A stretch of DNA of 10,599 bases, from IMG/VR virus record IMGVR_UViG_2713896787_000001; one strand, given 5' to 3'. Shown here one piece after another: positions 3,001 to 9,000 of the stretch (position 1 is the stretch's first letter; each line of letters opens with the position of its first letter). This DNA comes from a virus (taxonomy: Duplodnaviria > Heunggongvirae > Uroviricota > Caudoviricetes). Position numbers: made by a program.

Positions 3001-6000
3001 GTATTTTCTGACCGTGTTGCGACTACAGTTCAGTATTCTGGCTACCTCGGTCTGATTTTCATATGCCTCAACGAGCATGTCAGGAATGGTTTTTACTGTG
3101 AACGTCATGCGGCCTCACTTCTGCTGTTTCGCAGGTCTTTAAGTTTCTGCTGATACTTCGCCTTGATGGCCCTGCACTCTTCGACAGTCCAGCGATGGCG
3201 GTTATGGTTTGATTCGATTTCGTCTACTGCTTCCTGCCCGATGCGATTAATCAGTTCGACGCGATACGGAACGAGATTTCCGCTTTTGTGCTGGTTGCAC
3301 ACCACGCATNNNNNNNNNNNNNNNNNNNNNNNNNNNNNNNNNNNNNNNNNNNNNNNNNNNNNNNNNNNNNNNNACGGCTTGTTGGGCTTGTTTAATCCAG
3401 TAACTGCGGGGCTTTAAGGCGAGTTTTCGAATCTTAATTTTATCTTTCTGTTTCTGCTCCTCTCGTCGTCGTTTCTTCTCTGCTGTTTTTTCCGCCTTTT
3501 CGCGTTCTTTATTTCGTCGTTCGAGTGCTAATTTAGTTCCGTGTTCCGGGCTGCACCACCACTGATTTGAGAATGCCGGGTGAAACCATTCCTTACAGAT
3601 TTTGCATTTCCTTCGCGCTGGTTTAGCCATTAAGCAGCCTCCCCTGTTACTTTAAGCATTCCGTTATCTAGCAGCTTTCTTGTCAGCCACTGTTGACCAC
3701 GCCCGGTGATTTTTGTGGTGAACGATATCTGTATTCCGTGATTTGTATTGACCGCTGTTTCTTTCACTGTGAAATAGCCGCGATCCATATATTCCTGCAT
3801 TGGCACATTGCGCCGGGCACCTGAAGCAATAAGGATTTTGTGATCGCGCATCCACGCAAACCGTTTGTTTGGACCAATACCAACAACCTTTGCAAAGTTT
3901 CCAATCAAAATTCCGCTGGCCTCGCCAACTCGATCGGCAAACTCAACTTTAGGTGCTGCGAGAGCAAGCTGTTTCTCCAGTTCAGCCTTCTGGTCTTCAA
4001 GGTCGGCCGCAAGGCGCAATGCCTCAGAAAAGGTTTGTGGTATTTTCGCGGTTGCCCCTTCGAGTTCTCGCCAGCGGTCAACAAGGCGAGCGGTGAATTC
4101 CGGCGACAACTGGGCAACGACAATAATGCTATCGCGCTTACCTTGTTCGCCTTCGAAGACGTAAGCCTCGACACTACGGCGCAGCCCTAAGTTATTGATT
4201 TTTTTCGAAAACCTGCAATGCAGGAAGTTGAATAACTCCAGATTTAGCCAGGCGCTCTATTGATATTTTTACGTTATCTGGACGACTTCCCACTAACTCA
4301 GCGATTTCAATGCTTGTCATTTTGATGATACTGCTATTTATCAGCTCATTCATTGTCATGTCCTCTCACATTGAAAATTCAGTAATAAAAAACCCAGCCG
4401 AAGCTGGGTTTGTTAAGTTGTCAATTGTCAGTAGCGATGCAGTGAAGGCGGCAACTCTTTGTTCTTAAGCCTTACCCATGCGGAAAGGTTCGTTGGTCCG
4501 TCTGGCTCATTAATATCAACATCTCGTGTGTGGTTGATTAAAACATCTCTCGCCATTCCGATAACATACGAAAACTCATGACCGTAGTCGTAGCATCTGC
4601 CGGAATAGTTCGATTGAATTTGTTTTAGCGCCGGATACAGTTCGCGGAATAATGCCTGTGAGCGGTTAGCATAATCCCATAACCATACAAGGCTGTTTGC
4701 TTCTTTTGCGGAAAGCTCGTTGGTGCTCTTCTCTTGTTTGCCAGTATTTTTCTTGCACTGGCTGAAATAGCAGTCTTCCAGTTTTTCGAACACCTCCCAC
4801 GCCTGATCGGTTTCGAGCATTTTTGCATGACGGGCTGCGCCTCGTTCTGTCCAGAGGATGAGGGAGCGGGCTTTCGGGGAAATTTGTAACCCTCTTAAAG
4901 ATGGTTGCAAATTTTGTGAGTAGTTTAAAGCTACCCGCAAATTTTTCAGGGCATCGCCAGCCACTTTGAAAAAATGCTTTCCTTCAATAAAGCGCTCAGC
5001 ATTTCTGGCGTAGTTATTTTGAATGTTCTTAACTTCAGCACCGTACAACTGCGCCAAAAGTTCGGTGGTAATAACAGGAATCTGGTTATGGGTGATCGGG
5101 GAGAGAGTTTCAACAGAGATTTGAGTTGTCATAATGACGCCCTCGAGTGGTTTCTTAATAACTCACCACCGACGACGCCAATCTTCTGGTGGTGAACTGT
5201 GCAGGGTTGGCGTAACCGGGAAACCGACCGGCGCGGATCTCTCCGCCCCCACACAGCCCACCATAATTCAGATGTGCGCGTGCATACGACAATAAAAAAC
5301 ACGCTCGCGGCGTGTATCTGTCACGGTCTCTATCCAGGACGCCAATCCCGACGCCAGATTTTGCTGGCGCGTGAGGAATATAGCCCCGAATAAATCATCA
5401 CGTCAATCACCTTGTTTTCCTCGCACGATGTCTTAGCCACCGGATATCCCACAGGTGAGCCGTGTAATTGAAGGTTTTTACGTCAGATTCTTTTGGGATT
5501 GGCTTGCGTTTATTTCTGGAGCGTTTCGTTGGAAGGTATTTGCAGTTTTCGCAGATGATGTCGGTGATACTTCGTCGCTGTCGCCTCATGCAGCCCTCCT
5601 GACGCCCAGCCCGATCGCCATCAATGCCGCTTTGGATACGGTAGTAAACATCCGTCGAGGACTGATGAACGGTCGCCAAATCAGCAACATTGAGCCTTTG
5701 CTGTTTCCCTTCTTCTCCAGCCCTGTCGATGGTTCGATAAAATTAATCCGTCCATCAGTGATGATGCGAACTTCGTCAACACTCTCCAGAGCCTTGCTGA
5801 ACCATCCGACAGACATATCCTCTGGCACAAGCATCACTACCGTCTGTCGCTGTTGTATGCACTGCTCAGCGGCTTTTTCCACCCACGGCCTGATATTGCT
5901 GTACGGTGGGTTATTCCAGATTGCACCGTGGCTTATCCACTCAGAATTTAGCGCGTCGTCAGCCTCAGTTAGCCAGTGAGCGCACAGAGCGTTTTTGTCG

Positions 6001-9000
6001 CTCGCAGCTGAATCCAGCCAGAATCCAAACTCAATATCCAGCGCATCAAAAAGCCAGAGCGGCGTTTGCCAGCAGTCCTTGTCGTGTGCTGGCGTATTTG
6101 ATTTGATAGTCATGCAGCCTTCCCTTTTCGTTGTGACCATTCATACTCTCGCCGGGAGTCATCACTCCACCGCACGTTGCGCTCTGAGCCGAACCAGAAC
6201 ATGATTTCGATAAGCTCAGTCATGCTGGCCTTTCGCATTTTGCTGGTACGCACGCCAAGCATGACAACGCCACCGTCGATACCAGGCGCACTTCTTTGCT
6301 CCAGTTTTTTGGTCTTAAGCCACAGGGCAGTGAACAGGTCTTTCCAGTCTTCCGGCGCCAGCCGTTGACCATGCCATAGCACCTGACGCGAAACATCGTT
6401 CAGCATCGGCCACATGCGGTCATTCTGCGCTTTGCTGCGCTTGGGTTCTTTAACGTGGACTTCGTGGGGTGACTTGTCGTCGATGGGTAGTGAGAGAATG
6501 GCGTCTATGGCGTTATTTCTGATTGCTTCGTTGCGAAGCAGAAAGGTTTGCTTCATCTCCTGCTCTCCGGTTCCATTTTTCAGTAGCCGCAGCAACTGAT
6601 GGTGCCCATGCCACCCTGGCTTCACAGAGGTCACATTCTGCATAGCCCCACACATCAATATTTATTCCGGCCTCAACCCACAGACGAGCATTACCGCCGC
6701 AAAACGGACATTCTTTTAGCTTTGGCTGGGTTAATGATAGGTCGCTCATGCTCACTCCTTCACTTAAAATCCAGACTCCGGATAATTCTGTTGCGCTGAA
6801 ACTCATTGTTGAGTTTGAACAACCGTCGAAGAACACGGTCACGCGGATAGCGTCGTGCGGCAGGTGAATGCTCATACAACTCATCAAGCGGCAAACTGGA
6901 CGATGAACGATACCGATACCAACGCACCAACTCTTCACGAAAATTAGCCCTGACAAGCTCAGCTATCGTACTCATTTCTTAAAACCTCCTCAAACGCATT
7001 CTGACGCATTTTTCATTCTCGCTGCTTATCGGTATACCTTGCACGTGCTTACCTCACCACAGAGCGATTGTGATGCCTTAAAAGCGATTTATTGAAGTGA
7101 TATTTGCTTAATCGAAATTCTTTTCTTTGATTCCTGCGGCCCTGATGGCTTTCATTACTGCAATTACCGTTTTGTCACGCCCATCCTCATAACCCATCGC
7201 ATAAGCACCTTCTTCACCATCTTTCCAAAGGTCGTCATTCGATTCGGGCCAGTCGATATCCAGTTCAATAGCAGAGCGCGATGCCTGCCATATCACCCAG
7301 GCAAACTCTTTTAATTCATCGTCTCCCGTGAACTGGCTTTTGTCTTTTGACCACCAGTTTTCAAACTGTCGGTAGCTATCGTTCACTTCCCTCTCCCCCA
7401 AATAAAAAGGCCTGCGATTACAGCAGGCCTGTTATTAACTCAGTGATGTAGATGGTCATTGCTTCATCTCCCTTTCCATTTCATCAATGTCAACGTCATC
7501 AGGAAGATGGGAGCAATACGCCGCTATACCATGATGATTTATCTCATACCCTTTGAACGTTACCATCTGGCGCGTAATCTCAACTTCGTTCAGGAATCCG
7601 CCATCGCATAACTGCCTGGCTATTTTCGATTTGGTCTGGATTATTGGTAGTGCCTGTTCTTTCAAAGCGTATGATATTTGCGCATCCCATGCCTTTTCGA
7701 GAATGGCTAATTGTTTTTTATTCATCAGAATCCTCCTTTCTTCTTGGACTGCGGTTCCTCGCGTTCACGTCGGCGCATTTCAGCAGACTGTTGGTCTGTG
7801 TCATAAATAGCGCCATTTGCCTGAATGCAATACACCGTGCCGGTATTGCCATGACGATTGAGACGAAGGATTAGTTCGGTTTCACCAGGTGGAACACTGT
7901 CATCAAAAGCACCTTCACGATGGATCCCCACCCAATAATCGCAATCCTGTTCAATCTGCCCTGTATCTCGTGAGTCACTTGGTAATGGGCGTTTATTGGT
8001 TCGGCTTTCCAGTGCGCGGTTAAGTTGCGTCAGAAGCACAACAACGCAATCAAGCTCTTTGGCAAGGTTCTTCAGTCCTTTGGTGATCATGCCGTAAGCA
8101 AGGTCGTTGCGATCGGCCTTCTCAGCGGTCATTAGTGTCAGGTAATCGACCAGAATCATGCCAACACATCCTTTTTCTCGCTTGATTCGACGGCTTTCGC
8201 TGACGATTTGAGCCAGAGATAATCCCGGCGTGTCGTCGATGTAAAGCATGTCGATTTCACTCAAGCGATTGGCTGTTTCGATCGCCCTGTTGAAGTCACC
8301 ATCGTAATCACCCTGATAGCCGTCATCGGCGTCATTTGTCGCCGGAAGGTAAAAAATATTCGGGTTAACACCAGACTTCTGCCCTACCAGTTTTTCCAGT
8401 ATCTGATCACCTGGCATTTCAAGGCTGAACATCAGAGCGGGCTTTTTCTCATGCACTGCGCAATTGATTGCCATCTGGCTGTATAGCGTCGTTTTCCCCA
8501 TCTTAGGGCGAGCGCCAATGACAAACAGAGAGCCTTTCACCAGACCTTTCGGTGACAGCATCCTGTCCAGCGATGGGATCCCTGTGCTCATTCCCCGTTG
8601 TTCGCCTGATGGGTCAAATCGCTTCTCAAGGTCGCTAACCCAGTCTTCCATGACCTCGCCAAATGAGCGAAGGCCGCGACGCGATCCGGTTTTTGCATGG
8701 TCTGTCAGTTGCGTGAAAATCGCCTGAATAGCTTCGTACTTCTGCGTCGCAGTCATTCCGTTGCGGGAATAGAGCAATTCCGTCGCTTCAGTCATGCGGT
8801 TGATGGCGTAGCGTTCCATTGCGGTTTCGCGAACCTGCATTGCATAGGCAACGATGTTTGCGGCGCTCGGCGTGTTCTTTGCGATCTCAGCGATATAAGC
8901 AAAACCGCCAACAGACGCCGTTAACGATTTACGCTCCAGTTCATCGAAAAGCGTCAGGCCATCTACTGGCTTTTGCTCCCGGTGCATTCTGGTTATTTCT

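Follow-up and report, generated by a model that had tools for sequence, protein, structure and literature searches.

Lar-like zinc-ribbon and Dam-type methylase genes in the nin region of a lambdoid Shiga toxin phage: a probable mosaic accessory region rather than a purpose-built anti-restriction operon

When genes for a Lar-like zinc-ribbon protein and a Dam-type DNA methyltransferase lie side by side in a phage genome, do they form an operon dedicated to evading host restriction? The question is raised by IMG/VR virus record IMGVR_UViG_2713896787_000001 (Caudoviricetes), a stretch of 10,599 nucleotides whose full length we refer to as the window. A preliminary description had grouped these two genes, together with ninB and an open reading frame (ORF) of 71 amino acids, into a single anti-restriction cluster. 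Our analysis favours a different answer, which we hold with a probability of roughly 70%: these accessory genes make up a mosaic region instead of an operon built for anti-restriction, and the methylase and the Lar-like protein have separate roles. An anti-restriction role of each gene taken separately is plausible. All four ORFs of the cluster are present at 5586-6975 on the minus strand, the CPFCGG and NPPY motifs were found, and together with ninE the genes are as follows.

6975 down to 5407, minus strand: promoter-proximal nin block of five small accessory genes (DUF7301, Lar-family zinc ribbon, ninB, Dam-type methylase, ninE)
6760-6975, minus strand: DUF7301 gene, 71 amino acids, no known function (PF23975, 91 bits; phrog_1785)
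6513-6749, minus strand: Lar-family zinc-ribbon protein, 78 amino acids (TIGR03655, PF14354); last 44 nucleotides within ninB
6110-6556, minus strand: ninB, Orf-type recombination mediator, 148 amino acids (PF05772, phrog_72)
5586-6113, minus strand: orphan phage Dam-type N6-adenine DNA methyltransferase (M.EcoVT2Dam type), 175 amino acids (TIGR01712, PF05869)
5407-5589, minus strand: ninE, 60 amino acids (PF05322, 148 bits; 60/60 identical to VT2-Sakai)

The distribution of these genes in other phages and genomes, in counts that take no account of the relatedness among them, carries most of the argument. Phages Sf101 and mEp043 possess NinA, NinB, Dam, and NinE without Lar and without DUF7301, and phage Dewey, together with 12 of 12 E. 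coli contexts of 75-amino-acid DUF7301 variants, has DUF7301, NinB, and Dam without Lar. Salmonella prophages encode a 46%-identical Lar in the same position and with the same 44-nucleotide overlap into ninB; in seven of the eight Salmonella Lar contexts NinE directly follows NinB and no methylase is present, the methylase occurring in one of the eight and DUF7301 as well in one. Across complete E. coli genomes the methylase gene was found in 1566 genomes (2193 places) and the window Lar allele in 486 (682 places), and roughly two thirds of the E. coli methylase copies have no Lar. Among related phages, Lar, DUF7301, and Dam were found present or absent in every combination, a pattern unlike the co-occurrence of a dedicated module; the three are separate, independently shuffled cassettes.

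Comparison with the Salmonella version at the DNA level located one edge of such a cassette. Identity is about 45-50% over the body of the Lar gene and exceeds 90% from about 6580 into ninB, and from this jump we interpret the Lar body as an exchangeable cassette between conserved junctions. The mosaic junction at about 6580 falls inside the Lar gene, whose 15-residue tail is encoded by the conserved 5′ flank of ninB. The last ~15 Lar residues, GDEANLSASQRSNQK, are unchanged in the Salmonella homologs that are 46% identical overall.

One may postulate an alternative in which the four genes are a co-selected anti-restriction module whose members cooperate, for example with Lar alleviating restriction and the methylase modifying the DNA. 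Anti-restriction annotations on the Lar and methylase families are compatible with such a module, as are the adjacency and coupling of the genes and the whole block in 480 of the 486 E. coli genomes that hold the window Lar allele; this last figure describes local linkage, however, and the Lar-methylase linkage in E. coli is explained by the close relatedness of Shiga toxin (Stx) phages. A broader set of 80 diverse Lar-family viral loci had a PF05869 Dam within 5 kb in two cases, leaving 78 of 80 with Lar and no such Dam, NinB in two, DUF7301 in none, and some DNA methyltransferase in about 10 (by a motif screen checked with Pfam). A distant phage type, represented by IMG/VR contigs L107 (4255-4830) and L108 (1046-1621), has a PF05869 Dam (107 bits) immediately upstream of its Lar gene; no other case of Lar next to Dam was found outside enterobacterial lambdoid phages, and this one speaks for cooperation. 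Viral loci anchored on NinB were 97-100% identical and too redundant for an independent test of co-occurrence, and we used them for description only. Set against a cooperating module are the many Dam genes without Lar and Lar genes without Dam enumerated above, the position of a recombination protein, NinB, between the two, and the irrelevance of a GATC mark to type I recognition sites, and we consider it very improbable. The earlier claim that this stretch is dedicated to evading host restriction is not supported, given that the cassettes shuffle independently, that NinB is a recombination mediator, that DUF7301 has no known function, and that GATC is the host's own mark.

The locus itself proved to be familiar. 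Over 98% of the window, the sequence matches that of phage CP-1639 (AJ304858.2, from E. coli 1639/77) at 100% identity, and the remainder consists of masked bases.

226-275, 499-548, 2330-2379, and 3310-3373: masked runs of N (50, 50, 50, and 64 bases); the CP-1639 record is 100% identical on both flanks

The CP-1639 record has stx1A annotated. Every gene of the window is carried by the minus strand, and the order in the direction of transcription is a cII-like gene, O, P (a DnaB-type helicase), two small ORFs, a tR2-like terminator, the genes under discussion, ant, roi, ninG, Q, and stx1AB. The block is therefore the promoter-proximal part of the nin region (tR2 to Q) of the lambdoid Stx1 phage CP-1639. 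It resembles lambda- and P22-like nin regions in its position downstream of P and tR2, in the presence of ninB and ninE, in its short overlapping ORFs, and in cassette exchange. It differs from them in that DUF7301 and Lar stand before ninB in place of ninA, and the slot after ninB, which ninC occupies in lambda, is taken by a Dam-type methylase. No tRNA genes were detectable in the window; in VT2-Sakai there are three, located between Q and stx2A.

The feature was also annotated earlier, and there is nothing new in it. In GenBank, the CP-1639 entry already has genes called ‘dam’ (CAC83142) and ninB; a ‘Lar-like restriction alleviation protein’ and a ‘DNA methyltransferase’ are listed for VT2-Sakai and phage 2851 in RefSeq; and the Prokaryotic Genome Annotation Pipeline (PGAP)/RefSeq has a name for each of the five genes in E. 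coli chromosomes. Of 5426 complete E. coli genomes, 480 contain the entire block at a coverage of at least 80%.

The genes are packed tightly. Ten nucleotides separate the DUF7301 stop codon from the Lar ATG at 6749, just upstream of which lies an AAGGAG Shine-Dalgarno sequence; the 3′ end of Lar and the start of ninB overlap by 44 nucleotides; and an ATGA is common to the ninB stop and the methylase start, and likewise to the methylase stop and the ninE start. Neither terminator-like sites nor minus-strand promoter-like sites were found in the interior of the block (5586-6975), and terminator-like sites lie on either side of the block.

7408-7430, minus strand: tR2-like intrinsic terminator, 8-pair stem plus T-run; start of the nin region, upstream of the block
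5299-5315, minus strand: terminator-like site, downstream of the block

In the phage Nil2 record, a ‘tR2 terminator’ is annotated at the same place as the first of these (positions 3601-3632 of our locus L002, corresponding to about 7400-7431 of the window). Such packing would fit co-transcription and translational coupling across the genes. The single translationally coupled operon of the preliminary description thus appears sound as regards its tight junctions and uninterrupted interior, and needs correction as regards its extent, since the predicted coupled run continues past 5586 to ninE (5407-5589), its last gene.

What does each of the two putative anti-restriction genes encode? The family assignments proposed for both were borne out by profile searches, and PHROGs agrees with these calls. 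For the methylase, the TIGR01712 equivalog model scored 264.2 bits against a cut-off of 97 (E 3.3e-79, aligned over positions 1-165 of 165) and PF05869 Dam scored 216.4 bits against a cut-off of 28.1, which identifies a Dam-type N6-adenine methyltransferase. The NPPY motif (AAC CCA CCG TAC, 5901-5912, residues 68-71) preserves the catalytic (D/N)PP(Y/F) motif intact. The protein is identical at 173 of 175 residues (98.9%) to NP_050531 of VT2-Sakai, which is M.EcoVT2Dam, and the two also share their length, the NPPY motif, the slot between ninB and ninE, and the overlaps with these genes; the differences relative to VT2-Sakai are I60V and L169Q, neither of which lies in NPPY, and no functional difference is expected. 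The TIGR01712/PF05869 family to which M.EcoVT2Dam belongs also takes in the Dam enzymes of phages T1 and HP1. The VT2 methylase was reportedly cloned and characterised by Radlinska and Bujnicki in 2001. A methylome paper citing Radlinska & Bujnicki 2001 states that M.EcoVT2Dam ‘is known to target’ GATC (PMC6602927), and GATC is the specificity we would predict for the window enzyme from its sequence. The gene is an orphan, with NinB and NinE as neighbours and no adjacent endonuclease, and its best matches in PADLOC are orphan-methyltransferase models.

Another Stx-phage enzyme, the 16S rRNA methyltransferase of Gong et al. 2023, was considered as the identity of this protein and ruled out, as that enzyme belongs to the MT-A70 family and has a DPPW motif (PMC10810198). 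The enzyme in question, M.EcoPA8orf6770P, is likewise a Stx-prophage methyltransferase that was first annotated as a DNA adenine methylase, but it requires a partner subunit, lies at another locus, and methylates 16S rRNA (PMC10810198). Because the window methylase is of a different family (PF05869, NPPY), the rRNA-methylation result does not apply to it.

The role of the methylase is harder to settle than its identity, and a second alternative arises here: the enzyme may be mainly a factor of regulation or physiology, supplementing host Dam for the stability of lysogeny, for induction or replication timing, or acting on GATC-sensitive phage promoters. Several observations point this way. The predicted target is the host's own epigenetic mark. 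The Phi24B ortholog, for which CP-1639 CAC83142 is given as a 99% ortholog, is expressed and its transcript changes on induction; the protein was detected in lysogen cultures, and its authors propose that it adds to the activity of host Dam, on which stable lysogeny of 933W depends (PMC3342100). The role of this methylase family in phages has been described as ‘still not well understood’ (PMC7556043). The window is poor in GATC, with 30 sites where trinucleotide frequencies predict about 51, and a stretch of 2310 bp (5614-7922) that spans the methylase gene and its neighbours has none; GATC-poor prophage regions have been noted before (PMC6602927). This gap is only marginally unusual, however, as one that long appeared in 2.75% of order-3 Markov simulations. 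A regulatory role is further weakened by the fact that no regulatory target is directly evidenced, by the position of the gene in the delayed-early lytic transcript rather than the lysogenic one, and by pseudogene copies of the methylase in some Stx phage records, such as Stx2a_F349, for which no phenotype is stated. M.Phi93DAM, a small phage ‘DAM’ in which NPPY is the only recognised motif, methylates GATC and protects DNA from DpnII in vitro (PMC4190342); it is possibly a family relative of the window methylase, and as such it argues for protection rather than regulation. On this balance we view a mainly regulatory methylase as a possibility of some substance, albeit a doubtful one.

For the zinc-ribbon ORF, TIGR03655 scored 61.4 bits (cut-off 39.6, E 7.6e-17), PF14354 Lar 37.8 bits (gathering threshold 28.6), and phrog_599 ‘Lar-like’ 134.5 bits, in line with the proposed resemblance to the Lar family. 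CPFCGG is encoded at 6693-6710 (TGT CCG TTT TGC GGC GGT) and the second cysteine pair, CDLC, at 6624-6635. A search with the single Lar sequence returned six proteins, and a profile including RalR was needed for a wider family set. In an alignment of 52 family members, K12, C14, F16, C17, C39, and C42 never vary and W59 and R62 hardly do; the window protein has all of them, and it displays the family pattern of a four-cysteine ribbon, K-x-C-P-F-C-G followed by C-x-x-C, and then a helix with A-x-x-W-N-R-R. An AlphaFold2 (AF2) model with a predicted local distance difference test score (pLDDT) of 76.6 places strands at 21-27 and 33-39 and a C-terminal helix at 52-68. Foldseek matched this model in the PDB only to generic zinc ribbons and folds resembling double-stranded RNA-binding domains (dsRBD-like; best E 0.59), and sequence searches of the PDB with Lar, Dam, and DUF7301 gave no significant match.

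The founding member of PF14354/TIGR03655 is the Rac protein Lar/RalR (K-12 b1348), with which the window protein shares the CPFCG...CxxC ribbon and a C-terminal WN(R/K)R helix motif at 36% identity over 58 residues (E 3e-10). The two differ in setting, the window gene lying in the nin region upstream of ninB and Rac Lar in the early-left operon beside recT with the RalA antisense small RNA nearby. They also differ in that the window protein falls below the RalR equivalog model (NF007260, 28.7 bits against a cut-off of 113) and bears the 15-residue tail drawn from the ninB 5′ flank. King and Murray (1995) reportedly described Lar as a functional analogue of lambda Ral. Ral itself speeds first-strand modification by type IA enzymes (PMC12707154), and RalR has been reported as a non-specific DNase toxin (PMC4041452). 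Since experimental work on Lar is confined to Rac RalR, which is 36% identical and has also been described as a DNase toxin, ‘anti-restriction’ for the window protein is an annotation by homology.

The same literature raises a third alternative, in which the Lar-like protein acts as a DNase or toxin of the RalR type, or serves host takeover or replication and recombination as a different zinc-ribbon factor that binds nucleic acids. RalR, the sole studied member, cleaves DNA non-specifically and is toxic (PMC4041452), the family is defined by a zinc ribbon and a helix alone, and the gene adjoins replication and recombination genes in both E. coli and Salmonella phages, with the conserved 44-nucleotide overlap into ninB. 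We nevertheless regard this as unlikely. The protein is far under the RalR equivalog cut-off; its gene has DUF7301 and ninB for neighbours, not the recT/rcbA of the RalR type I toxin; the fold search returned no nuclease relative; and a position next to ninB is seen only in enterobacterial lambdoid phages (two of the 80 diverse loci). An Rfam scan found no antitoxin-like small RNA beside the Lar gene, a scan for which the presence of a RalA model in Rfam went unchecked. The gene is moreover frameshifted in the 933W and Min27 records, which would make it dispensable.

A related possibility, to which we attach a slim chance, is that nin-region Lar is not a type I alleviator at all. It would instead be a RalR-like DNA-cleaving or DNA-binding factor working with phage replication and recombination, or a Ral-like enhancer of modification by the phage's orphan Dam. 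We retain these two readings because Rac RalR is the only member tested, the fold search returned no functional relative, and the E. coli allele is nearly always linked to ninB and Dam.

Two peculiarities of the Lar gene in other records deserve mention. The frameshift in 933W traces to about 6604-6609 of the window, where VT2-Sakai has a run of six G, 933W (AF125520.1; 690-950 of locus L190) a run of seven, and CP-1639 GGGTGG. The seventh G shifts the frame after the second cysteine pair, and Min27 also matches in two pieces; the 933W homopolymer difference is either a sequencing error or a real inactivation, and if it is real, the Lar gene is dispensable. Separately, a 141-amino-acid ‘Lar-like’ form is annotated in NC_049943.1 (phage 2851), NC_011357.1, and NC_004813.1, with an N-terminal extension that covers DUF7301 in another frame (6750-6956, minus strand). 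The DUF7301 frame is conserved in Dewey (54% identity, 77 bits) and Salmonella locus L092 (46%, 54 bits), compared with 37 bits and no match for the extension. Because the conserved frame is that of DUF7301, we take the long Lar to be an annotation artefact and the real Lar gene to encode 78 amino acids.

Under our preferred reading of the block as a mosaic accessory region, the five genes would be read on the N-antiterminated pR transcript once RNA polymerase passes tR2, and translation would be coupled where genes meet at ATGA. The methylase would top up GATC methylation on fast-replicating phage DNA left under-methylated by host Dam, and fully marked progeny DNA would resist enzymes that cut unmethylated GATC (DpnII/MboI type). 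The methylase alone could not defeat the type I systems linked with Lar, because GATC is already marked by the Dam of the E. coli host. For the Lar-like protein, homology with Rac Lar and the functional parallel with lambda Ral suggest that it may improve survival on type IA (EcoKI-like) restricting hosts, in that it promotes the modification of DNA that is still unmodified. Each of the two proteins would work independently, against a different class of restriction, and NinB serves recombination.

This interpretation must be made cautiously, as a number of points weigh against it. The E. coli Lar allele almost always travels with the whole block. Co-transcription and coupling are read from sequence only. 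GATC methylation duplicates the host Dam mark, so any benefit in E. coli would be indirect, and the authors of the Phi24B work favoured a role related to lysogeny. On the Lar side, the score against the RalR equivalog model is low, the one studied relative was reported to be a non-specific DNase toxin, and our literature search found no experiment on a Stx-phage Lar-like protein.

NinB aligns with PF05772 over its full length (163.9 bits, positions 1-131 of 131) and is identical to the VT2-Sakai protein at 146 of 148 residues. Its frame is open upstream to a TTG at 6658 (182 amino acids, 6110-6658), and some records annotate a 181-amino-acid NinB; since the Pfam model aligns from residue 1 of the 148-amino-acid form, the short protein starting at ATG 6556 is the likely one. 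The AlphaFold2 model of DUF7301 is an all-helical, low-confidence hairpin (pLDDT 72.7, predicted template modelling score (pTM) 0.40).

Downstream of ninE, between it and ant, the window contains a P1-immI-like antisense RNA cassette (5185-5383, minus strand) with three Rfam matches above their gathering thresholds.

5331-5383, minus strand: c4-a1b1 targets, 50.5 bits
5294-5370, minus strand: isrK Hfq-binding small RNA, 75.3 bits
5185-5268, minus strand: C4 antisense RNA, 66.7 bits

The cassette agrees with a promoter-like site at 5406-5377 and the terminator-like site at 5315-5299, and it probably controls the antirepressor gene at 4428-5132. A strong match to the small RNA family STnc100 lies just downstream of stx1B (570-740, minus strand; 140.7 bits against a gathering threshold of 47).

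As a discovery the block carries little weight, given that its genes already bear names in the database entries (GenBank and RefSeq) for hundreds of Stx phages and E. coli genomes. Its interest lies in how those names are read. The Lar-like gene, whose annotation is propagated to thousands of genomes, has a single studied relative with two conflicting reported activities, and the methylase would write the host's own GATC mark. Lar and Dam are independent mosaic cassettes, and their adjacency should therefore not be taken as a functional anti-restriction module.

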